Source: Escherichia coli (GTDB lineage Bacteria; Pseudomonadota; Gammaproteobacteria; Enterobacterales; Enterobacteriaceae). Taken from it: DNA of 64,000 bases. The notes beneath the pieces are model-generated. The model was not told the DNA's origin. It did not search any database and was given only the letters and a program-made list of their open reading frames with translations. How positions within the stretch are numbered: position 1 is the first letter of the stretch; each line of letters begins with the position of its first letter. Shown here piece after piece: positions 5,627-28,380 of this stretch. The DNA is taken from assembly GCF_030013595.1 (NCBI RefSeq), contig NZ_CP122768.1. One strand, given 5' to 3'. The position numbers were made by a program, and so were the translations under genes.

Positions 5627-5670
5627 ATTGTTATTCAATAAATTCGCTTTAATAGTGATTAATTTATTAT

Positions 5671-6315: not shown

Positions 6316-8514
6316 ATGTCAGAATTAAAAATTGCCGTTAGTCGTTCTTGCCCGGATTGTTTTTCAACTCATCGCACATGCGTGAATATTGACGAAAGTA
6401 ATTATATTGACGTTGCCGCCATTATTTTATCGGTCAATGATGTGGAACGTGGAAAACTCGATGAAATAGACGCTACTGGCTATGGCATTCCTGTTTTTAT
6501 TGCAACGGAAAATGAAGAACGTGTACCCGCAGAATATCTGCCACGTATTTCTGGTGTCTTCGAACATTGCGAATCACGTAAAGAGTTTTATGGACGTCAG
6601 TTAGAAACCGCTGCAAGCCATTATGAAACGCAACTGCGCCCGCCCTTCTTCCGCGCACTGGTCGATTATGTTAATCAGGGCAATAGTGCTTTTGACTGCC
6701 CTGGTCATCAGGGGGGTGAGTTTTTCCGTCGCCATCCGGCAGGCAATCAGTTCGTGGAATACTTTGGTGAGGCGCTGTTCCGTGCTGACTTGTGCAACGC
6801 CGACGTAGCGATGGGCGATCTGCTGATTCACGAAGGCGCGCCATGCATTGCACAGCAACATGCGGCTAAAGTCTTTAATGCCGATAAAACCTATTTCGTT
6901 TTAAACGGTACTTCATCTTCTAATAAAGTGGTCTTAAACGCATTGCTGACGCCGGGCGATCTGGTGTTGTTTGACCGCAATAACCATAAATCTAACCACC
7001 ACGGTGCGTTGCTACAGGCTGGCGCGACACCGGTTTATCTGGAAACCGCACGTAACCCGTATGGTTTTATCGGTGGTATTGACGCTCACTGTTTTGAAGA
7101 AAGTTACCTGCGTGAGCTGATTATAGAAGTTGCACCGCAGCGGGCAAAAGAGGCTCGTCCTTTCCGCCTCGCCGTTATTCAGCTAGGCACTTACGACGGT
7201 ACGATTTATAACGCCCGTCAGGTGGTGGATAAAATTGGTCATCTGTGTGACTACATCCTCTTTGACTCCGCATGGGTCGGCTATGAGCAGTTTATCCCGA
7301 TGATGGCGGACTGTTCACCACTGTTGCTGGATCTTAATGAGAACGATCCGGGTATTCTGGTTACGCAATCCGTACATAAACAGCAGGCTGGTTTTTCTCA
7401 AACTTCACAAATCCATAAAAAAGACAACCACATCAAAGGGCAACAGCGTTATGTACCGCACAAACGCATGAACAACGCCTTTATGATGCACGCCTCCACC
7501 AGCCCGTTCTATCCGCTGTTTGCCGCACTGGATATCAACGCCAAAATGCATGAAGGTGTCAGCGGTCGTAATATGTGGATGGATTGTGTGGTAAATGGCA
7601 TTAATGCCCGCAAACTGATCCTCGATAACTGTCAGCATATTCGTCCGTTCGTACCTGAACTGGTGGATGGTAAACCCTGGCAGTCGTATGAAACAGCGCA
7701 AATTGCGGTTGATCTGCGCTTCTTCCAGTTTGTACCAGGGGAACACTGGCATTCTTTTGAAGGCTATGCAGAGAATCAATACTTTGTTGATCCGTGCAAA
7801 CTGTTGCTGACAACCCCAGGTATTGATGCACGTAACGGCGAATATGAAGCGTTCGGTGTACCCGCGACGATTCTTGCTAATTTCCTGCGCGAAAATGGCG
7901 TAGTGCCGGAAAAATGCGATCTTAACTCCATCCTCTTCCTGCTGACTCCAGCAGAAGATATGGCCAAACTTCAGCAACTTGTTGCCCTGCTGGTACGCTT
8001 CGAAAAACTGCTGGAATCTGATGCGCCGCTGGCGGAAGTGCTACCTTCCATCTACAAACAGCATGAAGAGCGCTACGCCGGTTATACGCTTCGTCAGTTG
8101 TGCCAGGAAATGCATGATTTGTATGCCCGCCACAACGTGAAACAACTGCAAAAAGAGATGTTCCGTAAGGAACACTTCCCACGCGTCAGCATGAATCCGC
8201 AAGAAGCTAACTACGCCTATTTACGCGGTGAAGTGGAGCTGGTTCGTCTGCCGGATGCAGAAGGCCGTATCGCTGCCGAAGGTGCGCTTCCTTATCCTCC
8301 GGGTGTGCTGTGTGTTGTTCCGGGTGAAATCTGGGGTGGTGCTGTTTTGCGTTACTTCAGCGCTCTGGAAGAAGGGATCAACCTGCTGCCAGGTTTTGCA
8401 CCGGAGCTGCAGGGTGTCTATATCGAAGAACATGATGGTCGTAAGCAAGTTTGGTGCTATGTCATCAAGCCTCGTGATGCGCAAAGCACCCTGTTGAAAG
8501 GGGAAAAATTATGA
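6316..8514 (+). CDS. speF: Inducible ornithine decarboxylase SpeF (PLP-dependent)
   Basis: ORF track 6307..8514; start placed at ATG 6316 (MSELKIAV...) with AAGAG 10 nt upstream; ATG 6307 is the alternative; full-length match to SpeF. Confidence 0.92.
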   Translation: MSELKIAVSRSCPDCFSTHRTCVNIDESNYIDVAAIILSVNDVERGKLDEIDATGYGIPVFIATENEERVPAEYLPRISGVFEHCESRKEFYGRQLETAASHYETQLRPPFFRALVDYVNQGNSAFDCPGHQGGEFFRRHPAGNQFVEYFGEALFRADLCNADVAMGDLLIHEGAPCIAQQHAAKVFNADKTYFVLNGTSSSNKVVLNALLTPGDLVLFDRNNHKSNHHGALLQAGATPVYLETARNPYGFIGGIDAHCFEESYLRELIIEVAPQRAKEARPFRLAVIQLGTYDGTIYNARQVVDKIGHLCDYILFDSAWVGYEQFIPMMADCSPLLLDLNENDPGILVTQSVHKQQAGFSQTSQIHKKDNHIKGQQRYVPHKRMNNAFMMHASTSPFYPLFAALDINAKMHEGVSGRNMWMDCVVNGINARKLILDNCQHIRPFVPELVDGKPWQSYETAQIAVDLRFFQFVPGEHWHSFEGYAENQYFVDPCKLLLTTPGIDARNGEYEAFGVPATILANFLRENGVVPEKCDLNSILFLLTPAEDMAKLQQLVALLVRFEKLLESDAPLAEVLPSIYKQHEERYAGYTLRQLCQEMHDLYARHNVKQLQKEMFRKEHFPRVSMNPQEANYAYLRGEVELVRLPDAEGRIAAEGALPYPPGVLCVVPGEIWGGAVLRYFSALEEGINLLPGFAPELQGVYIEEHDGRKQVWCYVIKPRDAQSTLLKGEKL

Positions 8515-9830
8515 GTCAGGCTAAATCGAACAAAATGGGCGTCGTTCAGTTAACCATACTGACGATGGTCAACATGATGGGCTCCGGTATCATCATGCTG
8601 CCGACAAAGCTTGCCGAAGTTGGGACAATTTCAATTATCTCCTGGCTGGTGACAGCCGTAGGCTCAATGGCACTGGCATGGGCATTCGCAAAATGCGGTA
8701 TGTTCAGCCGTAAATCAGGCGGTATGGGCGGTTATGCGGAGTATGCTTTCGGTAAATCCGGGAACTTTATGGCGAACTATACCTACGGCGTCTCACTGCT
8801 AATTGCTAACGTCGCGATTGCTATTTCGGCGGTTGGTTACGGCACCGAACTGCTCGGCGCGAGTTTGTCGCCAGTGCAGATTGGTCTTGCGACCATCGGG
8901 GTGCTGTGGATTTGTACCGTGGCTAACTTTGGTGGTGCGCGCATTACCGGGCAAATCAGTAGCATTACCGTGTGGGGGGTCATTATTCCGGTGGTAGGCC
9001 TGTGCGTTATCGGCTGGTTCTGGTTTAGCCCGACGCTTTACGTTGATTCCTGGAATCCGCATCATGCACCGTTCTTCAGTGCGGTAGGTTCTTCCATCGC
9101 TATGACGCTGTGGGCTTTTCTTGGTCTGGAGTCTGCGTGTGCGAATACTGATGTAGTGGAAAACCCGGAACGTAATGTGCCAATCGCGGTACTCGGCGGT
9201 ACGTTAGGTGCGGCGGTGATTTATATCGTCTCCACCAACGTGATTGCAGGGATTGTGCCTAATATGGAGCTGGCAAATTCAACGGCACCATTTGGCCTGG
9301 CCTTCGCACAGATGTTCACGCCAGAAGTGGGTAAAGTCATTATGGCGCTGATGGTGATGTCCTGCTGCGGTTCGCTGCTTGGCTGGCAGTTCACCATTGC
9401 CCAGGTGTTTAAATCTTCATCTGATGAAGGCTACTTCCCTAAAATTTTCTCCCGTGTAACCAAAGTGGATGCACCGGTGCAGGGAATGTTGACCATTGTG
9501 ATTATCCAGAGCGGGTTGGCGCTGATGACGATTAGCCCGTCGCTAAACAGTCAGTTCAACGTGCTGGTTAACCTGGCCGTGGTGACCAATATCATTCCGT
9601 ATATTCTGTCAATGGCGGCATTAGTCATTATTCAGAAGGTCGCTAATGTGCCCCCCTCAAAAGCGAAAGTTGCAAACTTTGTTGCTTTTGTTGGCGCGAT
9701 GTACAGCTTTTATGCGCTGTACTCATCCGGGGAAGAAGCCATGCTATACGGTTCCATCGTGACCTTCCTCGGTTGGACACTGTATGGTCTGGTCTCACCA
9801 CGCTTTGAACTGAAAAATAAACACGGTTAA
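8511..9830 (+). CDS. potE: Putrescine-ornithine antiporter PotE (439 aa)
   Basis: ORF overlaps speF stop (ATGA); polytopic APC-family transporter; speF-potE operon order. Confidence 0.95.
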   Translation: MSQAKSNKMGVVQLTILTMVNMMGSGIIMLPTKLAEVGTISIISWLVTAVGSMALAWAFAKCGMFSRKSGGMGGYAEYAFGKSGNFMANYTYGVSLLIANVAIAISAVGYGTELLGASLSPVQIGLATIGVLWICTVANFGGARITGQISSITVWGVIIPVVGLCVIGWFWFSPTLYVDSWNPHHAPFFSAVGSSIAMTLWAFLGLESACANTDVVENPERNVPIAVLGGTLGAAVIYIVSTNVIAGIVPNMELANSTAPFGLAFAQMFTPEVGKVIMALMVMSCCGSLLGWQFTIAQVFKSSSDEGYFPKIFSRVTKVDAPVQGMLTIVIIQSGLALMTISPSLNSQFNVLVNLAVVTNIIPYILSMAALVIIQKVANVPPSKAKVANFVAFVGAMYSFYALYSSGEEAMLYGSIVTFLGWTLYGLVSPRFELKNKHG

Positions 9831-9841
9831 TTAAGCAAAGC

Positions 9842-9875
9842 AAAAAAGGGCGATCTTCCGACCGCCCTTTTTCTT
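9842..9875. terminator. Bidirectional rho-independent terminator between potE and pgm
   Basis: AAAAAGGGCG-loop-CGCCCTTTTT hairpin with A-run and T-run on either side, between convergent genes. Confidence 0.7.
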
Positions 9876-9886
9876 ATTTAATGTGT

Positions 9887-11527
9887 TTACGCGTTTTTCA
9901 GAACTTCGCTAACAATCTCAACCGCTTCTTTCTCGATCTGCTTGCGATGCTCTTCACCGAGGAAGCTTTCGCAATAAATCTTGTACGCGTCTTCCGTGCC
10001 TGACGGACGCGCGGCGAACCAGCCGTTGTCAGTCATCACTTTCAGACCGCCAATAGAAGCACCGTTGCCCGGAGCAGCAGTCAGGCGTGCGGTGATCGGG
10101 TCACCTGCCAGGGTGCTGGCGCTCACCATTTCCGGAGACAGCTTAGACAGCGCCGCTTTTTGTGCGGAAGTCGCAGCTGCCTGCAAACGGTTGTAGCTCG
10201 GCGCACCAAAGCGTTTTGCCAGTTCGTTGTAGTGTTCCTGCGGGTTCTTACCGGTGACCGCGGTGATTTCTGCCGCCAGCAGACACATAATGATACCGTC
10301 TTTATCGGTTGACCACGGCGTGCCGTCGAAACGCAGGAAGGAAGCCCCTGCGCTCTCTTCGCCGCCAAAGCCGAAGCTGCCGTCGAACAGACCATCAACA
10401 AACCATTTGAAACCTACCGGGACTTCTACCAGCTTACGGCCCAAGTCATTGACCACACGGTCGATCATCGCAGATGAAACCAGCGTTTTACCGACAGCAA
10501 CATCTTTGCCCCACTGCGGACGATGCTGGAACAGGTAGTTGATCGCCACCGCCAGGTAGTGGTTCGGATTCATCAAACCTGCCGGAGTGACGATACCGTG
10601 ACGGTCATAATCCGGGTCGTTAGCAAACGCCAGATCGAACTTATCACGCAGTGCCAGCAGACCCGCCATCGCACACTCGGAGGAGCAGTCCATACGGATC
10701 GCACCGTCTTTATCGAGGTGCATAAAGCGGAAGGTTTGATCGACCTGATCGTTAACGATGGTCAGGTTGAGGTTGTAATACTCGCCAATGCGCTTCCAGT
10801 ATTCGATACCGGAACCACCCAGCGGATCAACGCCCAGCGTCAGGCCCGCTTTCTGAATCGCCGCCATATCAACGATATCGGCCAGCCCTTCCACAAACGG
10901 CTGCACCAGATCCTGCTCTTTCACATGACCGGATGCCATCGCTTCGTCGAGGGAGATACGCTTCACGCCTTTCAGGCCATCAGCCAGCAGTGCGTTGGCT
11001 CTGTCTTCCACCACTTTAGTGACGTTGGTATCAGCCGGGCCACCATTTGGCGGATTGTACTTGATACCACCATCTTCCGGCGGGTTATGGGACGGTGTAA
11101 TCACGATACCGTCTGCCAGCGGGCCACCTTTTTTATTGTGAACCAGGATGGCATTGGAAACGGCAGGCGTCGGAGTGAAGCCATTGTTTTCCTGCACAAT
11201 AACATCTACGCCGTTCGCTGCCAGCACTTCCAGTACGGAAATGAACGCAGGCTCGGACAGGGCGTGAGTATCTTTACCCACATAGCAAGGGCCAGTGATG
11301 CCGTTTTTCGCACGTTCTTCAGCAATTGCCTGAGCGATCGCCAGAATGTGCGGCTCGTTAAAGCTGTGGCGCGCTGCACTGCCACGGTGACCGGAAGTAC
11401 CGAATTTCACCGCGTGCTCCGCATTCCCTGCTTCTGGTTTCAGTACATAATATTGCGCCGTCAGTTGGGCGACGTTAATCAAATCACTCTGTTGTGCAGG
11501 TTGGCCTGCACGATTGTGGATTGCCAT
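9887..11527 (-). CDS. pgm: Phosphoglucomutase (546 aa)
   Basis: ORF track 9887..11578; start at internal Met (MAIHNRAGQ...); active-site motif TPSHNP. Confidence 0.95.
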
Positions 11528-11552
11528 TGCTTTGTCCTTTGTCTGCAACGTT

Positions 11553-12098
11553 TTAGATAGTTCCGCAAACCTTCTCAATCAATTCCGCCGGGAATTGCAT
11601 CGACTGCATGATGTGTTCGATCATGCTGCATTTACGGCCGGTGTTGGTGTTGGTGATCACCCAATACGGCGTGCCAGGCACATGTTTCGGCTTGGTCTGA
11701 TTACCATTTTTCAGCAGCGTTTGTTCATCTGCCGCAAAGTAAACGCGTGTACGACCGTGCAACGATTCCGTTGCTTCGGCAAACGCCTGGGCGTCAAGAG
11801 AATATAGTGTAGACAACAGCAGCATAAAGCGATTGACCGCTCGCTTTTGCTCTGCGTATTCATCCGAAAGCAGAAGTTCACGCATTGCGCGAACCTTGTC
11901 TTTAATCGTTTTGACCGGCTTCGCTTCGACGATAGCAGGTGACGCAACGCGAACCTCTTTCGTCACCGGAGCAGCAGGCTGTGATGCGGCGGAAAATTTC
12001 AACATACGCCGTAAAATGTCGGATGCGCTCTCGCCGATATGCTTAGTGTGGCTGGCAATATAGCTGTAGAGTTCATCATCAACTTCAATCGTTTTCAT
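11553..12098 (-). CDS. seqA: Replication initiation negative regulator SeqA (181 aa)
   Basis: ORF track 11553..12233; start at internal Met ([13 protein letters not shown]...); upstream of pgm on the same strand. Confidence 0.95.
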
Positions 12099-12282
12099 CT
12101 TAATCCAGTGCAGTGTCTTAGCTGAATACAAGTCGCCAGGAGTATATGAATAAATCCCGGCAGCGGATAGCGTCAAGCCTGGCTTGCAGAAAAACTCGGA
12201 ATAAACCTTATTTGTTGCAGCCCTGTGGCACAATGGTCAACATAATACCCTAACCCGACAACGCGAAAAAAAGAACTTTGCC

Positions 12283-13047
12283 ATGAAATTGAATATCCGC
12301 GCGCAAACTGCACAAAACCAGCACAATAATTCTCCCATCGTTCTTGTCCATGGTCTGTTTGGTAGCCTCGACAACCTTGGCGTACTGGCTCGCGATCTGG
12401 TAAACGATCACAATATCATCCTGGTTGATATGCGTAACCACGGTCTTTCACCGAGAGATCCGGTGATGAATTACCCGGCGATGGCGCAGGATCTTGTTGA
12501 TACCCTGGATGCACTGCAGATCGACAAAGCAACATTTATCGGTCACTCCATGGGCGGTAAAGCGGTAATGGCACTTACTGCACTGGCCCCCGATCGCATC
12601 GATAAACTGGTGGCGATCGATATCGCACCGGTCGACTATCACGTACGCCGGCATGATGAGATTTTCGCGGCCATCAACGCAGTCAGTGAATCGGACGCAC
12701 AAACTCGCCAGCAAGCAGCAGCAATAATGCGCCAGCATCTTAATGAAGAAGGGGTGATTCAGTTTCTGCTGAAATCTTTTGTTGACGGGGAGTGGCGCTT
12801 TAACGTGCCGGTATTGTGGGATCAGTATCCGCATATTGTGGGTTGGGAGAAAATCCCGGCCTGGGATCACCCTGCCCTGTTTATCCCAGGCGGCAACTCT
12901 CCGTATGTTAGCGAGCAGTACCGTGATGATTTACTGGCACAATTTCCACAGGCACGGGCGCATGTGATTGCAGGCGCGGGTCACTGGGTCCATGCTGAAA
13001 AACCGGATGCGGTATTACGCGCTATCCGTCGCTATCTCAATGATTAA
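12283..13047 (+). CDS. ybfF: Alpha/beta-hydrolase fold esterase YbfF (254 aa)
   Basis: ORF 12283..13047; nucleophile elbow GHSMGG. Confidence 0.9.
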   Translation: MKLNIRAQTAQNQHNNSPIVLVHGLFGSLDNLGVLARDLVNDHNIILVDMRNHGLSPRDPVMNYPAMAQDLVDTLDALQIDKATFIGHSMGGKAVMALTALAPDRIDKLVAIDIAPVDYHVRRHDEIFAAINAVSESDAQTRQQAAAIMRQHLNEEGVIQFLLKSFVDGEWRFNVPVLWDQYPHIVGWEKIPAWDHPALFIPGGNSPYVSEQYRDDLLAQFPQARAHVIAGAGHWVHAEKPDAVLRAIRRYLND

Positions 13048-13186
13048 CGCAACTGATTAAAAACCCAGCGTCCGCGTCGCTTTCCGCGCGTGGGCGTTGG
13101 CGTGACTCATCGCGCTGATGTATTATGGCGCGCTATCCATCCGGGCAGAGGCCTGGCTGATTGTTTCCCCCGAAGTCACCAAGATC

Positions 13187-13480
13187 ATGGCCAAAGAACA
13201 AACGGACCGTACGACATTAGATCTGTTCGCGCACGAGCGTCGACCGGGACGACCGAAAACTAATCCGCTTTCGCGCGATGAACAGCTGCGTATTAATAAA
13301 CGCAACCAGCTAAAACGCGACAAAGTACGTGGCCTTAAGCGTGTCGAACTGAAGCTGAACGCGGAAGCTGTCGAGGCGCTGAACGAGCTGGCGGAATCGC
13401 GCAATATGAGCCGTAGCGAACTGATCGAAGAGATGTTAATGCAGCAACTGGCGGCGCTGCGTAGTCAGGGCATCGTTTAA
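13187..13480 (+). CDS. ybfE: Small protein YbfE (97 aa)
   Basis: ORF track 13118..13480; start at internal Met ([14 protein letters not shown]...). Confidence 0.8.
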
Positions 13481-13619
13481 ATTTCCACTTTCATGTAGCA
13501 CAGTGTGCAGTCCTGCTCGTTTGCTGATTCCGCAAGACTGCCTGTTCTGCTATGATTGCCTTTATCCGTGGGCAATTTTCCACCCCCATTTCAATAAGTT
13601 TCAAGAGGTTATTTCACTC

Positions 13620-14150
13620 ATGGCTATCACTGGCATCTTTTTCGGCAGCGACACCGGTAATACCGAAAATATCGCAAAAATGATTCAAAAACAGCTTGGT
13701 AAAGACGTTGCCGATGTCCATGACATTGCAAAAAGCAGCAAAGAAGATCTGGAAGCTTATGACATTCTGCTGCTGGGCATCCCAACCTGGTATTACGGCG
13801 AAGCGCAGTGTGACTGGGATGACTTCTTCCCGACTCTCGAAGAGATTGATTTCAACGGCAAACTGGTTGCGCTGTTTGGTTGTGGTGACCAGGAAGATTA
13901 CGCCGAATATTTCTGCGACGCATTGGGCACCATCCGCGACATCATTGAACCGCGCGGTGCAACCATCGTTGGTCACTGGCCAACTGCGGGCTACCATTTC
14001 GAAGCGTCAAAAGGTCTGGCTGATGACGACCACTTTGTCGGTCTGGCTATCGACGAAGACCGTCAGCCGGAACTGACCGCTGAACGTGTAGAAAAATGGG
14101 TTAAACAGATTTCTGAAGAGTTGCATCTCGACGAAATTCTCAATGCCTGA
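13620..14150 (+). CDS. fldA: Flavodoxin 1 (176 aa)
   Basis: ORF track 13503..14150; start at internal Met ([16 protein letters not shown]...); flavodoxin FMN-binding signature. Confidence 0.95.
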
Positions 14151-14158
14151 TGTGATGC

Positions 14159-14186
14159 GGCGTAGACTCATGTCTACGCCGTATTA
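14159..14186 (+). terminator. Hairpin downstream of fldA (weak or partial terminator)
   Basis: GGCGTAGAC-TCAT-GTCTACGCC stem-loop directly after fldA stop; weak T tract. Confidence 0.45.
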
Positions 14187-14355
14187 ATAGATAATGCCAA
14201 TCAAAATAATTGCTACAAATTTGTAACTTTTGCTGTTGTACCTGTACAATGTCCCGGTGTTCAAGTGGCCTTGCCGTTGTAAATGTAAGCTGTGCCACGT
14301 TTTTATTAACAATATTTGCCAGGGACTTGTGGTTTTCATTTAGGCGTGGCAATTC

Positions 14356-14374
14356 TATAATGATACGCATTATC
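14356..14374. promoter_or_regulatory. Fur-box-like operator (TATAATGATACGCATTATC) in the fur upstream region
   Basis: 16 of 19 match to Fur box consensus GATAATGATAATCATTATC; overlaps the uof start codon and a TATAAT hexamer. Confidence 0.55.
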
Positions 14375-14446
14375 TCAAGAGCAAATTCTGTCACTTCTCC
14401 TAATGAAGTGAACCGCTTAGTAACAGGACAGATTCCGCATGACTGA
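14360..14446 (+). CDS. uof: Upstream ORF of fur (28 codons), translationally coupled to fur
   Basis: ATG at 14360; MIRIISRANSVTSPNEVNRLVTGQIPHD; stop at 14444-14446 overlaps fur ATG at 14439. Confidence 0.65.
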   Translation: MIRIISRANSVTSPNEVNRLVTGQIPHD

Positions 14447-14885
14447 TAACAATACCGCCCTAAAGAAAGCTGGCCTGAAAGTAACGCTTCCTCGTTTAAA
14501 AATCCTGGAAGTTCTTCAGGAGCCGGACAACCATCACGTCAGTGCGGAAGATTTATACAAACGTCTGATCGATATGGGTGAAGAAATTGGTCTGGCTACG
14601 GTATATCGCGTACTGAACCAGTTTGACGATGCTGGTATCGTCACCCGCCACAATTTTGAAGGCGGTAAATCCGTATTTGAACTGACACAGCAACATCACC
14701 ACGATCACCTGATCTGCCTCGACTGCGGCAAGGTTATCGAATTTAGTGATGATTCCATCGAAGCGCGTCAGCGTGAAATTGCCGCAAAACATGGCATTCG
14801 CCTGACTAACCACAGTCTCTATCTTTACGGTCACTGTGCCGAAGGCGATTGCCGCGAAGATGAGCACGCGCACGAAGGCAAATAA
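14439..14885 (+). CDS. fur: Ferric uptake regulator Fur (148 aa)
   Basis: ORF 14439..14885; MTDNNTALKKAGLKVTLPRLKILEVL...; C-terminal HHHDHLICLDCG metal-binding region. Confidence 0.97.
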   Translation: MTDNNTALKKAGLKVTLPRLKILEVLQEPDNHHVSAEDLYKRLIDMGEEIGLATVYRVLNQFDDAGIVTRHNFEGGKSVFELTQQHHHDHLICLDCGKVIEFSDDSIEARQREIAAKHGIRLTNHSLYLYGHCAEGDCREDEHAHEGK

Positions 14886-14900
14886 GCCAGCCGGAACGAG

Positions 14901-14930
14901 AAAAGCCAACCTGCGGGTTGGCTTTTTTAT
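14901..14930. terminator. Rho-independent terminator after fur (convergent with chiQ)
   Basis: AGCCAACC-TGCG-GGTTGGCT hairpin followed by TTTTTT. Confidence 0.75.
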
Positions 14931-14968
14931 ACACGGGAAATAAGAAAAGCGAGAGTTACAGCTCTCAC

Positions 14969-15295
14969 TTATTTGTTATTACTGCGAATTTCCTGCCAGA
15001 CCTTATCACAATCGGCTTTTACCGCCTGGTCATTACCGATTTGCGTTGCGCGCAGACACTGCTGATAATCCAGTACGCGTACACTTTCCTGGTCGGCAAA
15101 CTGCTGATGTTGTTTCTCTTTCTTTAGCACGTTTAACACGCTCTGGCAGGCTTCAATTTTTTCCGGCGAACCTTGCGCGGTGTTGATACAGGCGCTGTAA
15201 GCCTCTTTCAGACGGCTGTCTTCCTGCGGTGCGGTTGATTGCGCACAAGCTACCAGCCCCGTTGCCATCATGGCGATGAGAATCAGTTTTTTCAT
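14969..15295 (-). CDS. chiQ: Lipoprotein ChiQ (108 aa)
   Basis: ORF 14969..15295; signal peptide with lipobox LVAC; immediately downstream of chiP on the same strand. Confidence 0.9.
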   Translation of the reverse strand: MKKLILIAMMATGLVACAQSTAPQEDSRLKEAYSACINTAQGSPEKIEACQSVLNVLKKEKQHQQFADQESVRVLDYQQCLRATQIGNDQAVKADCDKVWQEIRSNNK

Positions 15296-16200
15296 AGCAA
15301 ATTCCTCAAACGTGCGGCAGGCACAAAACCTGCCGCGTCGGGCATCAGAAGATGGTGAATGGTGCGATTACCATGAATTTCACGTCGCGCTCATCCTGGA
15401 AAATGTTGCCGTAACCACCGCCCCAGCTTGGGATGTCGGAGTGGTTGTCATATTCGGTGAAATGCAGTTTGAACATCGTGCCCTTGGCGCGACCGTCCTG
15501 AATGGTGTACACCGCATCCAGGCTATATGCAGACTCTTCAATAGTCCGGTTCTTGTCGTAGTACGCATCCGGATTGCTCTGCCAGGTAGCGGGTTTAGCA
15601 TCCCATGCGTAAACGTAGGAAGCGCCGATGGCGAAGCCTGGAAGATTCCAGTTTTTCAGGTCATACATCGCACCGAAGAAGACCGCTTTTTCGCCGTTGG
15701 CGTTGAAGTCAGAACGGTTATCCCACCAGATATCCAGGCGACCGTTCGAGGAAGCGTAGGTTGGAGTCATACGTTGCAGGAAGTATCCCTGCTGACCGTC
15801 GGCTTTAACCCAGGTGCCTTCCAGACGCAAATCCACTACATCAGCCGCCCGGTAACCAAAGGTCAACGCTTGCAGCCAGGCGGTGCCGTCATAAAGATCG
15901 TTGACGCTGCGATCGTCAACTTTATCGCGCGTACCATAGAACTGGTAGCTGGTGGTTAACGGGCTACCGGCGATATCAAATTTGTAGCTGGCTTTGGCAA
16001 AATATTGATCGATATCCCCTTCTGCCTGACCAAATGCCGCTTCCAGTACAAAGTTATTTTTGAAGTCGTACTTCGCACCGATGGAGTGCAGATAATCAAC
16101 TTTGGTGGTTTTATCGTTCTGATAAAACTCATCCATTTCCAGATGCCACGGTGCTTTGTATTCGTTGGTCCACATGTAGGAGAAACTCAAGGCACCAGCA

Positions 16201-16209
16201 TCGCCGTAA
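16201..16209. repeat. Target-site duplication, left copy (TCGCCGTAA)
   Basis: Identical 9-mer directly abuts both ends of the IS. Confidence 0.9.
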
Positions 16210-17266
16210 GGCTTTGTTGAATAAATCGAACTTTTGCTGAGTTGAAGGATCAGATCACGCATCCTCCCGACAACACAGACCATTCCGTGGCAAAGCAAAA
16301 GTTCAGAATCACCAACTGGTCCACCTACAACAAAGCTCTCATCAACCGTGGCTCCCTCACTTTCTGGCTGGATGATGAAGCGATTCAGGCCTGGTATGAG
16401 TCGGCAACGCCTTCATCACGAGGAAGGCCCCAGCGCTATTCTGATCTCGCCATCACCACCGTTCTGGTGATTAAACGCGTATTCCGGCTGACCCTGCGGG
16501 CTGCGCAGGGCTTTATTGATTCCATTTTTTCTCTGATGAACGTTCCGCTACGCTGCCCGGATTACAGCTGTGTCAGCAGGCGGGCAAAGTCGGTTAATGT
16601 CAGTTTCAAAACGCCCACCCGGGGTGAAATCGCACACCTGGTAATTGATTCCACCGGGCTGAAGGTCTTCGGTGAAGGCGAGTGGAAAGTCAAAAAGCAT
16701 GGCCAGGAACGCCGCCGTATCTGGCGTAAGCTGCATCTCGCCGTTGACAGTAAAACACATGAAATCATCTGCGCTGACCTGTCGCTGAACAACGTTACGG
16801 ACTCAGAGGCCTTCCCCGGGTTAATCCGGCAAACCCACCGGAAAATCAGGTCAGCCGCCGCCGATGGCGCTTACGATACCCGGCTATGTCACGATGAACT
16901 GCGGCGTAAGAAAATCAGCGCGCTTATCCCTCCCCGAAAAGGTGCGGGTTACTGGCCCGGTGAATATGCAGACCGTAACCGTGCAGTGGCTAATCAGCGA
17001 ATGACCGGGAGTAATGCGCGGTGGAAATGGACAACAGATTACAACCGTCGCTCGATAGCGGAAACGGCGATGTACCGGGTAAAACAGCTGTTCGGGGGTT
17101 CACTGACGCTGCGTGACTACGATGGTCAGGTTGCGGAGGCTATGGCCCTGGTACGAGCGCTGAACAAAATGACGAAAGCAGGTATGCCTGAAAGCGTGCG
17201 TATTGCCTGAAAACACAACCCGCTACGGGGGAGACTTACCCAAAATCTGATTTATTCAACAAAGCC
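16210..17266 (+). mobile_element. IS903-type insertion sequence (IS5 family), 1057 bp, complete
   Basis: Perfect 18-bp terminal inverted repeats GGCTTTGTTGAATAAATC (16210-16227 and 17249-17266, reverse complement); single transposase ORF; 9-bp flanking direct repeat; length and end sequence match my recollection of IS903. Confidence 0.9.
16287..17210 (+). CDS. IS903-type DDE transposase (about 307 aa from GTG 16287; ORF track gives 322 aa from ATG 16242)
   Basis: Translation ...[36 protein letters not shown]...AADGAYDT... matches the IS903/Tn903 transposase as I recall it; ORF lies wholly within the IRs. Confidence 0.85.
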
Positions 17267-17275
17267 TCGCCGTAA
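17267..17275. repeat. Target-site duplication, right copy (TCGCCGTAA)
   Basis: Identical to 16201-16209. Confidence 0.9.
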
Positions 17276-18171
17276 TCAAAATTCGCTCCGGCTTCCGCAC
17301 CCTGATAAGTACCTGGCATAAAGCTCCAGTGCGGCGCTAACAGCGTCTGACCGGTTGGCTGAATATAACCTGCCCTCGCCCAAACCGGACCGTATTTAAA
17401 TTTGGCCGCAGCTTTATACAGGCTTATACCGCTTTTGTCGCCGGACCAGTCTTCGTCATAGGCTTTATTACTTTTTGAAAACGCGATTTCGTTCGGGTGA
17501 GAGCTGTCGCCGTTTTCCGCCATTTCAATCGCCGTAAACGCGGCAATATCAAGGCCGAACATATCAGCAGCATAACCGGACTGAAAATCGAGGTTGGCGT
17601 TCCAGGTGGAGTGAGAAAGGTTGGTTTTGTATTTGTCGCCGTCGGTAACATCTTTACGGTCGCGTTCACGCTGCCAGTAATAGATACCGCCGGTTAAGGT
17701 TGAATCGTCGATGAATCCTTCGGCGCGAGCCTCCGGCATTGCCATAAAGCCCGACATTGCTGTAACACCGGCGATAGCCAGCGCCAGCGTACTACGTTTG
17801 CCACTAAACGTACGCATGGGTTAATCCTCTTTGACGTATAAATTGCTGCACCAAAGGTGAACAGCGAAAAAAATAAAAATTAAAAAAGTAGCGTTGAGAA
17901 AAGTCTCGCTGACTACAGGAACAGACTATTTTTCGCGACGCGAATTATCAATCTCTTTCTGTAACCAGAATGTAAGAACATGAGCAACCGCACATATTTT
18001 GATGATTTTTGTTACAAGGCTTAAGTTTGCGGTTGAAAGGCTTGCAGAAGAATAAAAACGTGAAATTCCAGCAAGATGAAAGCGTTTACATTTTATTTAA
18101 TTATGATTTGTGATTTTAAATTTATTTTATGAATAAATTGCGAAGCGGAATTAATTCGCGAAGAAAAGCAG

Positions 18172-18199
18172 AAAAAAACGCCGCAGAGCGCGGCATTTT
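18172..18199 (-). terminator. Rho-independent terminator of glnS
   Basis: GCCGC-AGAGC-GCGGC hairpin with A-run on plus strand (T-run on minus strand). Confidence 0.6.
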
Positions 18200-18218
18200 G
18201 AATTGTTTGCATGTTTCA

Positions 18219-18257
18219 TGCCGGATGCGGCGTAAACGCCTCACCCGGCCTGGTAGA
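18219..18257. repeat. REP (repetitive extragenic palindrome) element
   Basis: TGCCGGATGCGGCGTAAACGCCTCACCCGGCCTGGTAG matches the E. coli REP consensus family. Confidence 0.75.
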
Positions 18258-18265
18258 ACTTAAAA

Positions 18266-19930
18266 TTACTCGCCTACTTTCGCCCAGGTATCACGCAGCC
18301 CAACGGTGCGGTTAAATACCGGTTTTTCCGCCGTAGAATGGCGGCTGTCGAGGCAGAAATAACCTTCACGCTCAAACTGGAATGCTTTACCCGCTACCGC
18401 GTCTTTCAGAGACGGTTCAGCAAAGCCCTGTTTGATCACCAGCGATTCCGGGTTAATCACCGACAGGAAATCATCCGCAGCACCTGGGTTCGGCACGCTG
18501 AACAGACGATCGTACAGGCGGATTTCAACCGGCAGCGCATGTGCCGAGCTCACCCAGTGAATAACGCCTTTCACTTTACGACCATCTGCCGGATCTTTGC
18601 TTAAGGTGTCGGCGTCATAAGTACAGAAGATGGTGGTGATATTGCCTTCGGCATCTTTCTCCACGCGTTCTGCCTTAATGACGTAAGCATTACGCAGACG
18701 CACTTCTTTACCCAGCACCAGACGCTTGTACTGCTTGTTAGCTTCTTCGCGGAAATCGGCGCGATCGATCCAAATCTCACCGCTAAACGGCACCTGACGG
18801 CTCCCCATTTCCGGTTTGTTCGGATGGTTCGGCATGGTAACCATTTCACCTTCGCCCTGATAGTTTTCGATAACCAGTTTCACCGGATCGATAACCGCCA
18901 TTGCGCGCGGGGCGTTTTCGTTGAGATCTTCACGGATGCAGGATTCCAGCGACGCCATTTCAATGGTGTTGTCCTGCTTGGTCACGCCGATGCGTTTGCA
19001 GAACTCACGAATAGAAGCCGCAGTGTAACCACGACGACGCAGACCGGAAATGGTCGGCATACGCGGGTCATCCCAGCCTTCAACGTGCTTGTCGGTCACC
19101 AGCAGGTTCAGCTTACGCTTGGACATCACAGTGTATTCCAGATTCAGGCGCGAGAATTCGTACTGGCGCGGGTGAACAGGAATGGTGATGTTGTCCAGCA
19201 CCCAGTCGTACAGGCGACGGTTGTCCTGGAACTCAAGCGTACACAGAGAGTGCGTAATACCTTCCAGCGCATCGCTGATGCAATGGGTGAAGTCGTACAT
19301 CGGGTAGATGCACCACTTGTTGCCAGTCTGGTGGTGTTCAGCAAATTTAATGCGGTACAGCACCGGATCGCGCATTACGATAAATGGCGACGCCATGTCG
19401 ATTTTCGCACGCAGGCAGGCTTTACCTTCTTCAAAACCGCCGGTACGCATTTTCTCGAACAGCGCCAGGTTCTCTTCAACGCTGCGGTCGCGGTACGGGC
19501 TGTTTTTACCCGGCTGCGTCAGGGTGCCGCGGTATTCGCGGATCTGTTCCGGTGTCAGTTCATCAACGTACGCCAGGCCTTTATTGATCAGTTCGATCGC
19601 ATAGGCGTGGAGCTGATCAAAATAATCGGAGGAGTAACGGACGTTACCAGACCAGTGAAAACCTAACCACTCAACGTCGTTTTTGATCGACTCAACATAC
19701 TCGATATCTTCTTTTACCGGGTTAGTGTCGTCGAAACGCAGGTTGCACTGGCCTTTATAGTCCTGGGCGATCCCGAAGTTCAGGCAGATAGATTTCGCAT
19801 GGCCAATATGCAGATAGCCATTCGGCTCCGGCGGGAAACGGGTGTGTACTGTGGTGTGCTTACCACTGGCCAGATCTTCATCGATGATCTGACGAATAAA
19901 GTTAGTCGGGCGGGCTTCTGCCTCACTCAT
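18266..19930 (-). CDS. glnS: Glutaminyl-tRNA synthetase (554 aa)
   Basis: ORF 18266..19930; class I aaRS HIGH motif (HIGHAKS) and KMSKS-type VMSKR. Confidence 0.97.
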
Positions 19931-20049
19931 CGTGGATTCCTCAAAGCGTAAACAACGTATAACGGCGTATGATCTTATAAGCGGGACAGGCTGACAACTG
20001 TTAGTTAGTGAAAATCGAAAATCTCACTGAGATTATGGGGATGATTGAT

Positions 20050-20083
20050 GAAAAAAAAGCGGCAGAGAAGATCTCCACCGCTT
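20050..20083 (-). terminator. Candidate terminator hairpin downstream of nagE
   Basis: AAGCGG...CCGCTT stem with A-run on plus strand (T-run on minus strand). Confidence 0.5.
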
Positions 20084-20093
20084 GTCATTGTTG

Positions 20094-20121
20094 GATGCGA
20101 CGCTCAAGCGTCGCATCAGGC
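20094..20121. repeat. REP-like palindrome
   Basis: GATGCGACGCTCAAGCGTCGCATCAGGC, typical REP-type imperfect palindrome. Confidence 0.65.
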
Positions 20122-20131
20122 ATAAAGCAGA

Positions 20132-22078
20132 TTACTTTTTGATTTCATACAGCGGTGTTTGACCCGCCATGACATGGCCCTGAGCTTTAATGATCAAGCC
20201 GCTGAAATCGTCGATATTGCTGCAAACCACCGGGCTAATCATCGAACGGGCGTTAGCGTTCAGGTAATCCAGATCCATTTCCAGAATCGGTTGCCCTGCG
20301 CTTACTTGCGCGCCCTCTTCCACCAGACGTTTAAAACCTTTACCTTCCAGCGCTACGGTGTCGATACCCATATGGACGACGATCTCCGCGCCTTTTTCGG
20401 TTTCCAGGCAGAACGCGTGGTTGGTATTGAAGATTTTCACGATTGTCCCTGCGGCTGGTGATACGACGATTTTATCTGTCGGTTTCACCGCCACACCGTC
20501 ACCCACCGCTTTGCTGGCGAATGCTTCGTCAGGAACCTGATCCAGTGCCACAACATCACCGGTAATCGGCGATACCAGCTCCGCGATAGACACCGCGTTT
20601 GGTACAGCCTGCGGTTTTGCTACAGGCGCGGCAGTTGCAGGCGCAGTTTCAGCTGACGCAGCGGCTACCGGACCACGGGCAACAACTTTCTTCATTGCAT
20701 CGCCAATGGATTCCGCTTTCGCGCCAACAATCACCTGAATAGTCTGTTTGTTCAGTTTCACTACCCCAGAAGCACCCAGCCGTTTACACATCGCATCGTT
20801 GACGCGAGCCGAGTCAACCACGGTCAGGCGCAGACGAGTAATACAGGCGTCAATTGCTTTCAGGTTGTCAGTGCCGCCAACCGCAGCAATATAGTTGGTC
20901 GCCAGTTGATTGAGGCCTTCTTCAGTGTTGCTGTTGGCTTCTTCAGTAACGATCTCATCTTCTTTATCTTCACGACCCGGCGTTTTCAGGTTGAACATGC
21001 GGATAACCAAACTGAACACCACGAAGTAGATAGCGAAGAAGACAACACCCATCACCAGCAGCATCCAGACGTTCTGGCTGGCGGCCGGCAGGTTATACAT
21101 CAACGCGTAGTCGATAGCCCCCGCAGAGAAGGAGAAGCCCGCGTGGATACCCAGCAGCGTTGCCACAAACAGGCTGATACCGGTCAGCAGTGCGTGCAGG
21201 AGGTACAGCAGCGGCGCAAGGAACATGAACAGGAATTCCAACGGCTCAGTCACACCGGTCAGGAACGCAGTAACAGCAACAGAAAGCAGCATACCGCCAA
21301 CCATCGGACGACGCTCTTTCGGTGCTGCAAAGTACATCGCCAGCGCCGCACCCGGCAGACCGAACATCATGATCGGGAAGAAGCCGGACATGAACATCCC
21401 CGCGGTGCCGTCACCAGCGTAGAAACGGTTGATGTCGCCGTGGAAAACCGTACCCGCCGCGTTGGTGAATTCACCAATCTGGAACCAGGCGATGGTGTTC
21501 AGCACCTGATGCAGACCGGTTGGGATCAGCAGACGGTTGATGAAACCAAAGATACCGGAACCCAGCGCGCCCGCAGAAACGATCCACTCGCCGCCTGCAT
21601 GGATAGCGTGCTGTACCGGCGGCCAGACGTAACCAAAAATGGCCGCCAGCACCAGGCAGAAGAAGCCGGTGGCAATCGGCACAAAGCGTTTGCCGCCGAA
21701 GAAGCTCAGGAAGTCAGGCAGTTTAATATCGGACCAACGGTTATAGGCTGCGCCACCAACCAGACCGGTAATGATACCCGCCAGTACACCCATGTTAATT
21801 TCTGGGTTGATGGTCACCATCGCTTTGGTTAACACAAAGTAACCTACCGCACCCGCCAGCGCCGCCGCACCTGCGCTGTCTTTCGACCAGCTGGATGCCA
21901 CACCGATGGCGAAGATTAATGCGAGGTTATCAAAAATCGCACCGCCCGCCTGGGCAATAAACGCAACGTTAAGTAAATCTGGCTGACCGAATCGCAGCAA
22001 CAGCGCCGCCACCGGCAGCACCGCGATAGGGAGCTGTAACGCCCTACCGAGTCGCTGGAAAAAACCTAAAATATTCAT
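20132..22078 (-). CDS. nagE: PTS N-acetylglucosamine-specific EIICBA (648 aa)
   Basis: ORF 20132..22078; glucose-family EIIC membrane domain, EIIB cysteine motif (…IDACITRLR…), C-terminal EIIA domain. Confidence 0.95.
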   Translation of the reverse strand: MNILGFFQRLGRALQLPIAVLPVAALLLRFGQPDLLNVAFIAQAGGAIFDNLALIFAIGVASSWSKDSAGAAALAGAVGYFVLTKAMVTINPEINMGVLAGIITGLVGGAAYNRWSDIKLPDFLSFFGGKRFVPIATGFFCLVLAAIFGYVWPPVQHAIHAGGEWIVSAGALGSGIFGFINRLLIPTGLHQVLNTIAWFQIGEFTNAAGTVFHGDINRFYAGDGTAGMFMSGFFPIMMFGLPGAALAMYFAAPKERRPMVGGMLLSVAVTAFLTGVTEPLEFLFMFLAPLLYLLHALLTGISLFVATLLGIHAGFSFSAGAIDYALMYNLPAASQNVWMLLVMGVVFFAIYFVVFSLVIRMFNLKTPGREDKEDEIVTEEANSNTEEGLNQLATNYIAAVGGTDNLKAIDACITRLRLTVVDSARVNDAMCKRLGASGVVKLNKQTIQVIVGAKAESIGDAMKKVVARGPVAAASAETAPATAAPVAKPQAVPNAVSIAELVSPITGDVVALDQVPDEAFASKAVGDGVAVKPTDKIVVSPAAGTIVKIFNTNHAFCLETEKGAEIVVHMGIDTVALEGKGFKRLVEEGAQVSAGQPILEMDLDYLNANARSMISPVVCSNIDDFSGLIIKAQGHVMAGQTPLYEIKK

Positions 22079-22202
22079 CTTATTCCCCCTACGAGAACCC
22101 TATTTGGCTCGTTTAAAGCCGTATTTTTATTTTGCTGCAAATTGTACTGCCGATGTTCTGTAATCAGATTGTTAGATCATCTGCTACAGAGTGTGTGAAA
22201 AT

Positions 22203-22224
22203 TTAATTCGTATCGCAAATTAAA
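22203..22224. promoter_or_regulatory. Candidate NagC operator in the nagE-nagB divergent region
   Basis: Quasi-palindrome TTAATTCGTATCGCAAATTAAA; a second AT-rich candidate lies about 90 bp away (around 22291-22316), fitting the two-operator looping arrangement known for this region. Confidence 0.5.
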
Positions 22225-22232
22225 CGCGTGTC

Positions 22233-22254
22233 TTTTGTGAGTTTTGTCACCAAA
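22233..22254. promoter_or_regulatory. CRP binding site (TGTGA-N6-TCACC)
   Basis: TTTTGTGAGTTTTGTCACCAAA between the divergent nagE and nagB starts. Confidence 0.7.
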
Positions 22255-22410
22255 TATCGTTATCATCACTCCCTTTTACTGGCTAAACCAGAAAACTTAT
22301 TTTATCATTCAAAAAATCAGGTCGGATTGACGCCTGTCTGCGCAAATCCAGGTTACGCTTAAAGATGCCTAATCCGCCAACGGCTTACATTTTACTTATT
22401 GAGGTGAATA

Positions 22411-24419
<2,009 letters not shown>

Positions 24420-24427
24420 GAGAAAGT

Positions 24428-25648
24428 ATGACACCAGGCGGACAAGCTCAGATAGGTAATGTTGATCTCGTAAAACAGCTTAACAGCGCGGCGGTTTATC
24501 GCCTGATTGACCAGTATGGGCCAATCTCGCGGATTCAGATTGCCGAGCAAAGCCAGCTTGCCCCCGCCAGCGTAACCAAAATTACGCGTCAGCTTATCGA
24601 ACGCGGGCTGATTAAAGAAGTTGATCAGCAGGCCTCCACCGGGGGCCGCCGCGCTATCTCTATCGTCACCGAAACCCGCAATTTCCACGCAATCGGCGTA
24701 CGGCTTGGTCGTCACGACGCCACCATCACCCTGTTTGATCTCAGCAGCAAAGTGCTGGCAGAAGAACATTACCCGTTGCCGGAACGTACCCAGCAGACGC
24801 TGGAACATGCCCTGCTGAATGCCATTGCTCAGTTTATTGATAGCTACCAGCGCAAGCTGCGCGAGCTGATCGCCATTTCCGTGATCCTGCCGGGGCTTGT
24901 TGACCCGGACAGCGGCAAAATTCATTACATGCCGCATATTCAGGTGGAAAACTGGGGGCTTGTAGAAGCACTGGAAGAGCGTTTTAAAGTGACCTGTTTT
25001 GTCGGCCACGATATCCGCAGTCTGGCGCTGGCGGAGCACTACTTCGGTGCAAGTCAGGATTGCGAAGACTCCATTTTAGTGCGTGTCCATCGCGGAACCG
25101 GGGCCGGGATTATCTCTAACGGGCGCATTTTTATTGGCCGCAACGGCAACGTCGGTGAAATTGGCCATATCCAGGTCGAACCTCTGGGTGAACGCTGCCA
25201 CTGTGGCAACTTTGGCTGCCTGGAAACTATCGCCGCCAACGCTGCCATTGAACAACGGGTGTTGAATCTGTTAAAGCAGGGCTACCAGAGCCGTGTGCCA
25301 CTGGACGACTGCACCATCAAAACTATCTGCAAAGCCGCGAACAAAGGCGATAGCCTGGCGTCGGAAGTGATTGAGTATGTCGGTCGTCATCTGGGCAAAA
25401 CCATCGCCATTGCTATCAACTTATTTAATCCGCAAAAAATTGTTATTGCCGGTGAGATCACCGAAGCCGATAAAGTGCTGCTCCCTGCTATTGAAAGCTG
25501 CATTAATACCCAGGCGCTGAAGGCGTTTCGTACTAATCTGCCGGTGGTACGTTCTGAGCTGGATCACCGCTCGGCAATCGGCGCTTTTGCGCTGGTAAAA
25601 CGCGCCATGCTCAACGGTATTTTGCTCCAGCATTTGCTGGAAAATTAA
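24428..25648 (+). CDS. nagC: ROK-family transcriptional regulator NagC (406 aa)
   Basis: ORF 24428..25648; N-terminal HTH and ROK zinc motif CHCGNFGCLE. Confidence 0.95.
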   Translation: MTPGGQAQIGNVDLVKQLNSAAVYRLIDQYGPISRIQIAEQSQLAPASVTKITRQLIERGLIKEVDQQASTGGRRAISIVTETRNFHAIGVRLGRHDATITLFDLSSKVLAEEHYPLPERTQQTLEHALLNAIAQFIDSYQRKLRELIAISVILPGLVDPDSGKIHYMPHIQVENWGLVEALEERFKVTCFVGHDIRSLALAEHYFGASQDCEDSILVRVHRGTGAGIISNGRIFIGRNGNVGEIGHIQVEPLGERCHCGNFGCLETIAANAAIEQRVLNLLKQGYQSRVPLDDCTIKTICKAANKGDSLASEVIEYVGRHLGKTIAIAINLFNPQKIVIAGEITEADKVLLPAIESCINTQALKAFRTNLPVVRSELDHRSAIGAFALVKRAMLNGILLQHLLEN

Positions 25649-25695
25649 TGTGCTTTTATAGTGGCGCTTATTGTTGTCAATATTCTGGGTAGTCC

Positions 25696-26448
25696 ATGAC
25701 CATTAAAAATGTAATTTGCGATATCGACGGCGTGCTGATGCACGATAACGTCGCCGTACCGGGTGCAGCGGAATTTTTGCACGGGATTATGGATAAAGGC
25801 CTGCCGCTGGTGTTGCTGACCAACTATCCTTCGCAGACCGGGCAAGATCTGGCGAACCGCTTTGCCACTGCCGGTGTCGATGTACCTGACAGCGTGTTTT
25901 ATACCTCTGCGATGGCGACCGCCGATTTCCTGCGTCGCCAGGAAGGCAAGAAAGCATATGTGGTGGGCGAAGGCGCACTGATTCATGAACTGTACAAAGC
26001 CGGTTTCACTATTACCGATGTGAACCCTGATTTTGTGATTGTTGGCGAAACGCGTTCCTACAACTGGGACATGATGCATAAAGCAGCCTATTTCGTCGCT
26101 AACGGTGCACGCTTTATCGCCACCAACCCGGACACCCACGGGCGCGGTTTTTATCCGGCCTGTGGCGCGCTATGCGCGGGGATCGAAAAAATCTCCGGAC
26201 GTAAACCGTTCTATGTTGGTAAGCCGAGTCCGTGGATCATCCGCGCAGCATTAAACAAAATGCAGGCGCATTCGGAAGAAACGGTGATTGTCGGCGATAA
26301 CCTGCGTACCGATATTCTGGCGGGCTTCCAGGCCGGTCTGGAGACGATTCTGGTACTCTCCGGTGTTTCGTCGCTCGACGATATCGACAGTATGCCATTC
26401 CGCCCCAGCTGGATTTACCCATCGGTCGCCGAAATCGACGTTATCTGA
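25696..26448 (+). CDS. nagD: HAD-family ribonucleotide monophosphatase NagD (250 aa)
   Basis: ORF 25696..26448; HAD motif I DIDGVL. Confidence 0.93.
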   Translation: MTIKNVICDIDGVLMHDNVAVPGAAEFLHGIMDKGLPLVLLTNYPSQTGQDLANRFATAGVDVPDSVFYTSAMATADFLRRQEGKKAYVVGEGALIHELYKAGFTITDVNPDFVIVGETRSYNWDMMHKAAYFVANGARFIATNPDTHGRGFYPACGALCAGIEKISGRKPFYVGKPSPWIIRAALNKMQAHSEETVIVGDNLRTDILAGFQAGLETILVLSGVSSLDDIDSMPFRPSWIYPSVAEIDVI

Positions 26449-26704
26449 ATAGCAACCACGCCTCAGGGCGTGGTTTCTTATTTTTACCCATCATTAAAAT
26501 TCACCCATTCAATAAAACCCGCCAAAAATTATCGATTCATCAATAAATACACCTCCACACCCTACCCTTTTTCATTAATCAGCAATCACCATTACGTTTT
26601 TTATTTTCACCCTGCCAAATCGCTTGCGCACAGTGCTGCTTTGCGGCATTTTTTTAAACAAGCAAACACAACAAGCAACAAATACCAGGTTAACGGAGAA
26701 GGTT

Positions 26705-28369
26705 ATGTGTTCAATTTTTGGCGTATTCGATATCAAAACAGACGCAGTTGAGCTGCGTAAGAAAGCACTCGAGCTGTCACGCCTGATGCGTCATCGTGGC
26801 CCGGACTGGTCCGGTATTTATGCCAGCGATAACGCCATTCTCGCCCACGAACGTCTGTCCATTGTTGACGTTAACGCGGGGGCGCAACCTCTCTACAACC
26901 AACAAAAAACCCACGTGCTGGCAGTAAACGGTGAAATCTACAACCACCAGGCATTGCGCGCTGAATATGGCGATCGTTACCAGTTCCAGACCGGGTCTGA
27001 CTGTGAAGTGATCCTCGCGCTGTATCAAGAAAAAGGGCCGGAATTTCTCGACGACTTGCAGGGCATGTTTGCTTTTGCCCTGTACGACAGCGAAAAAGAT
27101 GCATACCTGATTGGCCGCGACCATCTGGGGATCATCCCACTGTATATGGGCTATGACGAACATGGTCAGCTGTATGTGGCCTCAGAAATGAAAGCCCTGG
27201 TGCCGGTATGCCGCACGATTAAAGAGTTCCCGGCGGGGAGCTATTTGTGGAGCCAGGACGGCGAAATCCGTTCTTATTATCATCGCAACTGGTTCGACTA
27301 CGATGCGGTGAAAGATAACGTAACCGACAAAAACGAGCTGCGTCAGGCACTGGAAGATTCCGTTAAAAGCCATCTGATGTCTGACGTTCCTTACGGTGTG
27401 CTGCTTTCCGGTGGTCTGGATTCCTCAATTATTTCCGCGATCACCAAGAAATACGCCGCCCGTCGCGTGGAAGATCAGGAACGTTCTGAAGCCTGGTGGC
27501 CGCAATTACACTCCTTTGCTGTAGGTCTGCCGGGTTCACCGGATCTGAAAGCAGCCCAGGAAGTGGCAAACCATCTGGGCACGGTGCATCACGAAATTCA
27601 CTTCACTGTACAGGAAGGTCTGGATGCCATCCGCGACGTGATTTACCACATCGAAACTTATGATGTGACCACTATTCGCGCTTCAACACCGATGTATTTA
27701 ATGTCGCGTAAGATCAAGGCGATGGGCATTAAAATGGTGCTGTCCGGTGAAGGTTCTGATGAAGTGTTTGGCGGTTATCTTTACTTCCACAAAGCACCGA
27801 ATGCCAAAGAACTGCATGAAGAGACGGTGCGTAAACTGCTGGCCCTGCATATGTATGACTGCGCGCGTGCCAACAAAGCGATGTCAGCCTGGGGCGTGGA
27901 AGCACGCGTTCCGTTCCTCGACAAAAAATTCCTTGATGTAGCGATGCGTATTAACCCACAGGATAAAATGTGCGGTAACGGCAAAATGGAAAAACACATC
28001 CTGCGTGAATGTTTTGAAGCGTATCTGCCCGCAAGTGTGGCCTGGCGGCAGAAAGAGCAGTTCTCCGATGGCGTCGGTTACAGTTGGATCGACACCCTGA
28101 AAGAAGTAGCGGCACAGCAGGTTTCTGATCAACAGCTGGAAACTGCCCGCTTCCGCTTCCCGTACAACACGCCGACGTCCAAAGAAGCGTATCTGTACCG
28201 GGAGATCTTTGAAGAACTGTTCCCGCTTCCGAGCGCCGCTGAGTGCGTGCCGGGCGGCCCTTCCGTCGCGTGTTCTTCCGCTAAAGCGATCGAGTGGGAT
28301 GAGGCGTTCAAGAAAATGGACGATCCGTCTGGTCGTGCGGTTGGCGTTCACCAGTCGGCGTATAAATAA
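26705..28369 (+). CDS. asnB: Asparagine synthetase B, glutamine-hydrolysing (554 aa)
   Basis: ORF track 26624..28369; start at MCSIFGV (N-terminal nucleophile Cys2); PP-loop SGGLDSS. Confidence 0.95.
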   Translation: MCSIFGVFDIKTDAVELRKKALELSRLMRHRGPDWSGIYASDNAILAHERLSIVDVNAGAQPLYNQQKTHVLAVNGEIYNHQALRAEYGDRYQFQTGSDCEVILALYQEKGPEFLDDLQGMFAFALYDSEKDAYLIGRDHLGIIPLYMGYDEHGQLYVASEMKALVPVCRTIKEFPAGSYLWSQDGEIRSYYHRNWFDYDAVKDNVTDKNELRQALEDSVKSHLMSDVPYGVLLSGGLDSSIISAITKKYAARRVEDQERSEAWWPQLHSFAVGLPGSPDLKAAQEVANHLGTVHHEIHFTVQEGLDAIRDVIYHIETYDVTTIRASTPMYLMSRKIKAMGIKMVLSGEGSDEVFGGYLYFHKAPNAKELHEETVRKLLALHMYDCARANKAMSAWGVEARVPFLDKKFLDVAMRINPQDKMCGNGKMEKHILRECFEAYLPASVAWRQKEQFSDGVGYSWIDTLKEVAAQQVSDQQLETARFRFPYNTPTSKEAYLYREIFEELFPLPSAAECVPGGPSVACSSAKAIEWDEAFKKMDDPSGRAVGVHQSAYK

Positions 28370-28380
28370 GACGTATAATA

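Follow-up and report, generated by a model that had tools for sequence, protein, structure and literature searches.

Introduction

The IS903 transposase binds the 18-bp ends of the element, whose 3' ends it transfers to phosphates of the target with a 9-bp stagger. The line between isoforms of an insertion sequence is generally set at 95% DNA identity, and to our knowledge IS903 is absent from Escherichia coli K-12. The IS903B reference, X02527, is 1,057 bp long and carries a 307-aa ORF at positions 78-1001 (PMC8796155). For IS903, PMC2577343 lists a duplication of 9 bp and gives, in a table, the preferred target WTTYA-N9-TRAAW. IS903B has been described as a gene disruptor, for example of mgrB in Klebsiella (PMC8796155, PMC10513040). 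In those insertions a chromosomal gene is inactivated by a simple IS903B insertion, as at the locus described here; however, the mgrB knock-out has a known selected phenotype (colistin resistance), whereas none is known for loss of the chitoporin gene chiP (ybfM). In the absence of chitosugars, expression of chiP is kept down by NagC and the small RNA ChiX (PMC4098024).

Here, we analysed a 64-kb stretch of E. coli DNA (64,000 nucleotides, referred to as the window) in which, as we conclude with very little doubt, a complete copy of an IS903B isoform has transposed into chiP of the chromosome and given rise to a null allele.

Results

Termini and target-site duplication of the element

A complete IS903B-type insertion sequence of 1,057 bp occupies positions 16210-17266 (+ strand) of the window. 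Its left terminal inverted repeat, GGCTTTGTTGAATAAATC (16210-16227, +), is matched at 18 of 18 positions by the right one (17249-17266, -), which is its exact reverse complement. Past base 18 the symmetry is only partial, a repeat search giving 34 nt at 82%. Two copies of TCGCCGTAA form the target-site duplication, the left one (16201-16209) abutting the left end of the element and the right one (17267-17275) abutting its right end. By our own arithmetic, the chance expectation for perfect 18-bp inverted repeats lying within 2 kb of each other is about 0.002 in 64 kb, and it falls to about 7e-9 when the inverted pair must also be abutted by a 9-bp direct repeat. The terminal 18-mer GGCTTTGTTGAATAAATC has no further copies elsewhere in the 64-kb window, which holds a single pair of ends. 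The sequence-only reading had described a 1057-bp element with perfect 18-bp inverted repeats and one DDE-transposase ORF, flanked by a perfect 9-bp direct repeat, and every one of its coordinates and sequences for these features was reproduced in our analysis.

One base of the element is private to this copy. At element position 1033 (17242, +) an A is found in place of the G present in all four copies with which the element was compared. This position lies 25 nt from the right terminus, between the transposase stop codon and the right repeat, and belongs to neither the ORF nor the 18-bp repeat. A search with the 32-nt right end containing the private A gave no exact match in 100,044 species-representative genomes.

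Scanned against Rfam over its full length, the window gave no match inside or adjoining the IS element. Elsewhere in the window, we noted a cluster of seven tRNA genes at 28750-29451 (Met-Leu-Gln-Gln-Met-Gln-Gln, as annotated in a relative), the sRNA sroC at 37842-38004, and a match to a cspA-type thermoregulator at 59211-59569, upstream of cspE.

The transposase

The sole long ORF of the element runs from 16242 to 17210 (+) and encodes 322 aa from a TTG in the ORF list; NCBI PGAP picks the same upstream TTG at 16242 for this frame. The transposase gene of 307 aa starts from a GTG and spans 16287-17210 (+), or element positions 78-1001. The ORF scored 358 bits against NCBIfam NF033579 (IS5 family transposase), for which the cut-off is 140, and both PF13737 and PF01609 of Pfam match it. 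The catalytic residues D136, D208 and E274 (322-aa numbering) are present, as is the motif Y-x2-R-x3-E-x6-K, and the amino acid sequence is identical to that of RefSeq WP_077249883.1, 'IS5-like element IS903B family transposase'. Judged from its sequence, this IS copy is complete, and nothing in it points to inactivity.

Assignment to IS903B and mosaic structure

As proxies for the curated ISfinder reference, we took the PGAP-labelled copy of E. coli SMS-3-5, IS102 of pSC101 and WP_077249883.1 for the identity comparisons. Length (1,057 bp), 18-bp ends, 9-bp duplication and the single 307-aa ORF are all as in IS903B (X02527). The copy closest in sequence among those compared, that of strain HZ13 ('IS903B family'), differs at only 1 of 1,057 positions, namely position 1033, and encodes an identical protein; a DNA identity of 99.9%, one base off, was found in nine E. 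coli records and one plasmid. The SMS-3-5 copy, labelled IS903B, shows 25 differences in 1,057 bp (97.6% identity), and 24 of these fall within positions 51-276. Over the remainder, from position 277 to the right end, the two agree at every base but the private one at 1033, and the 7 amino acid differences of the SMS-3-5 protein all lie within residues 1-39 of the 322-aa frame.

A different distribution was found in the other copies. The copy on Klebsiella pneumoniae plasmid pINF061.3 ('IS903 family') differs at 28 of 1,057 positions, clustered between 563 and 677, with 3 protein differences, and IS102 of pSC101 (NC_002056.1, 6916-7972) differs at 54 of 1,057, mostly between 302 and 719, with 11 protein differences. 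Although IS102 has the same length and identical 18-bp ends, its 94.9% identity places it slightly under the 95% isoform line. The 18-bp ends are in fact identical in IS102 and in three other copies labelled IS903 or IS903B. Architecture and ends as here are likewise shared by the pINF061.3 copy and by IS903 of Tn903; the latter, which we set beside the element by description, differs in that its kanamycin-resistance passenger and second arm are both absent here.

Element positions 51-276 (window 16260-16485) match IS102 and the IS903-labelled copy, unlike the IS903B of SMS-3-5. Because the DNA differences cluster by segment in each compared copy, the element is, on sequence comparison, a mosaic isoform with a left part (280 bp) of IS903/IS102 type and a remainder of IS903B type, a pattern that suggests recombination between members of the IS903 group. 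On these proxies, we assign the element with high confidence to IS903B as an isoform (IS5 family, IS903 group). The earlier label 'IS903-type' was right, and it can be refined to IS903B by the identity of the protein with WP_077249883.1, the position of the ORF at 78-1001 and the matches to NF033579, PF13737 and PF01609.

Disruption of chiP

The element lies between nt 551 and 552 of the 1,407 nt of chiP, which is read from the - strand. The 5' fragment (17267-17817, -) comprises nt 1-551, that is, codons 1-183 and two bases of codon 184, and it runs on for 10 codons into the IS element as far as a stop at 17236-17238, creating a chimeric ORF of 193 aa. The 3' fragment (15345-16209, -) extends from the duplicated TTACGGCGA to the stop codon and has no promoter, start codon or signal peptide. 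Downstream of it in the chiPQ operon, the lipoprotein gene chiQ (ybfN) is located at 14969-15295 (-) according to the ORF list and the annotation of a relative. The gene neighbourhood glnS - chiP - chiQ - fur is conserved, and its ORFs match the annotation of the collinear relative.

In silico deletion of 16210-17275 produced an ORF of 468 codons plus stop on the - strand. The restored protein is 1 residue apart from WP_001258828.1 (found in strains HCP5S3_I2 and Z1323HEC0422) and 2 residues apart from ChiP of K-12; the protein is nearly invariant (1-2 residues) despite a DNA divergence of about 2.7%. The claim that excision restores a continuous 468-codon chiP is borne out by this 468-aa ORF and by a near-identical genome with an empty site; alignment of the flanks to a reference chiP, which had been proposed as a check, gave a contiguous gene and the exact insertion point.

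A private non-synonymous change, Y246D, is found at 16016 in the 3' fragment, where K-12, HCP5S3_I2 and Z1323HEC0422 all have Y. It is compatible with relaxed constraint after inactivation, and equally with the background of about 0.4 differences per kb, the density measured against the closest genome. The view that the insertion has not decayed since it occurred was essentially right, the exceptions being this substitution and the private base at 17242.

The sequences flanking the target were also compared with the IS903 preference. The left flank, CAGCA, agrees at 2 of 5 positions and the right flank, TCAAA, at 4 of 5, a partial match compatible with a preference that is no requirement.

The empty site in related genomes

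The closest complete E. coli genome, that of strain HCP5S3_I2, is 99.95% identical to the window over 63 kb, with 27 mismatches and 2 small indels. Window positions 1-16209 and 17263-64000 are both collinear with it, without rearrangement, at 99.94-99.96% identity. At the junction, this genome has a single TCGCCGTAA and an intact gene, annotated as 'chitoporin ChiP', for a 468-aa protein. HCP5S3_I2 is one of two E. coli strains from pig faeces whose genomes match the right flank at essentially 100%. In the glnS-nagE region, comparison with the closest genome showed a small indel at about 20059 (between glnS and nagE) and one substitution at 19606.

Among 5,426 complete E. coli genomes, none had a place at which a query spanning both junctions was covered to at least 80%, and a large gene-position index contained no exact entry for the 193-aa chimeric ORF. 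By contrast, intact chiP as query was covered to at least 80% in 5,423 of the 5,426 genomes, and chiP was in a single piece and full-length in 59 of 60 rows of an evenly spread sample. Absent from the 5,426 genomes, of which 5,423 have chiP covered to at least 80%, the insertion is a derived state specific to its lineage. Its gain in the source lineage, as opposed to its loss elsewhere, is the parsimonious direction of the event, and the insertion is probably recent.

The only split chiP among the 60 sampled genomes was that of E. coli O157:H7 strain 493/89 (NZ_CP038412.1, 3924585-3925583), where the gene is covered to 71% in 2 places and annotated as 'OprD family outer membrane porin'; this chiP was disrupted independently. 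As for the lineage itself, the segment at 15345-30000 belongs to an uncommon E. coli lineage, in that only 2 of the 5,426 complete genomes reach at least 99% identity to it. Both are pig-faeces isolates from Winchester, UK, and the next best matches after them reach 98.8% across 12.7 kb and, for chiP, 97.9%.

Distribution of the isoform

Full-length relatives of the element (at least 80% coverage) were found in 1,536 of the 5,426 complete E. coli genomes, in up to 47 places per genome, and 3,434 genomes had no match to it at all. Relatives were also found in at least 5,000 plasmids, mostly of Klebsiella, Escherichia, Enterobacter and Salmonella. The nine copies that are one base off are located in different genes and hosts, the genes including espL1, ompN and glcA; such copies sit on a single plasmid and on chromosomes, where as many as 21 places were counted. 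The spread of these nine copies over different genes and hosts is indirect evidence that the isoform moves. The two genomes closest to the window were, among the matches listed, not in the nine records with a near-identical isoform.

Discussion

From the biochemistry of IS903, a route to this allele can be proposed. The transposase would have bound the ends of a donor copy, carried by a plasmid or by another part of the chromosome, and either cut that copy out or copied it. The 3' ends of the element would then have been joined to phosphates of the chiP target staggered by 9 bp, and gap repair would have left the duplication of TCGCCGTAA. Because ChiP is cut after residue 183 of 468 and ends in a 10-residue IS-encoded tail, no beta-barrel can be built, and the chiP allele is null. 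Polarity has probably silenced chiQ as well. In a simple promoter/terminator scan of 15900-18300, no outward promoter-like site was found in the IS element toward the chiP 3' fragment or chiQ, which is a weak negative; the sole promoter-like match in that interval, at 18119-18090 (-), lies upstream of chiP.

An insertion of this kind might have been selected, for example through reduced entry of an antibiotic, a bacteriocin or a phage via ChiP. Passage of aminoglycosides through ChiP is reported in a preprint (10.1101/2022.09.05.506620). Moreover, chiP is a nearly universal and strongly conserved core gene (covered to at least 80% in 5,423 of 5,426 genomes), and because it is nearly universal and its protein varies by only 1-2 residues, a null allele stands out. 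Yet the event is a single occurrence, since the insertion is in no other genome of those searched and the gene-position index lacks the chimeric ORF, and beyond one split gene no recurrent disruption of chiP is seen in the 60 sampled rows. Because ChiX and NagC repress chiP without chitosugars, its loss in the gut is in all likelihood neutral or close to neutral, and little benefit is to be expected from losing a gene that is normally repressed. We therefore regard selection of the knock-out as improbable, and we hold equally little expectation that the mosaic isoform is actively spreading in animal, human and environmental E. coli jointly with selection for loss of chiP.

Two further readings would change the event itself. 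An error in repeat resolution could have placed the IS element in a chiP gene that is really intact; misjoins in short-read assemblies are most often due to insertion sequences, and the set of complete genomes that was searched does not include the source genome. A misjoin, however, would not yield an exact 9-bp duplication at both junctions, of a length typical of this IS group, and the flanks are collinear for 16 kb and 47 kb, leaving such an artefact highly unlikely. Less credible still is that the insertion is ancestral and has been precisely excised in the relatives, or that the IS element forms an arm of a Tn903-like composite transposon, even if both events are possible in principle for elements of the IS903 group. 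The junctions are missing from essentially all of the 5,424 other chiP-containing E. coli genomes, across all lineages, so one insertion accounts for the pattern far more parsimoniously than repeated precise excision would. As to a composite transposon, it was ruled out by the single pair of ends in the 64-kb window and by the duplication, which brackets a single IS element directly; a passenger gene is absent. The insertion of an IS903B isoform into chiP is best read as a recent chance event rather than as an adaptation.

This is a textbook insertion by one of the commonest insertion sequences of enterobacteria and is known in kind. It is of use in annotation and strain typing, and it raises no new biological question. 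For 15345-17817, the fitting annotation is a chiP pseudogene interrupted by IS903B in place of two hypothetical ORFs, and uptake of chitooligosaccharides through ChiP is predicted to be lost in the strain. Missing from all 5,426 complete E. coli genomes searched, the two near-identical pig isolates included, the insertion is a handy marker of its lineage, and it indicates that the IS903B isoform has moved recently in the source lineage.
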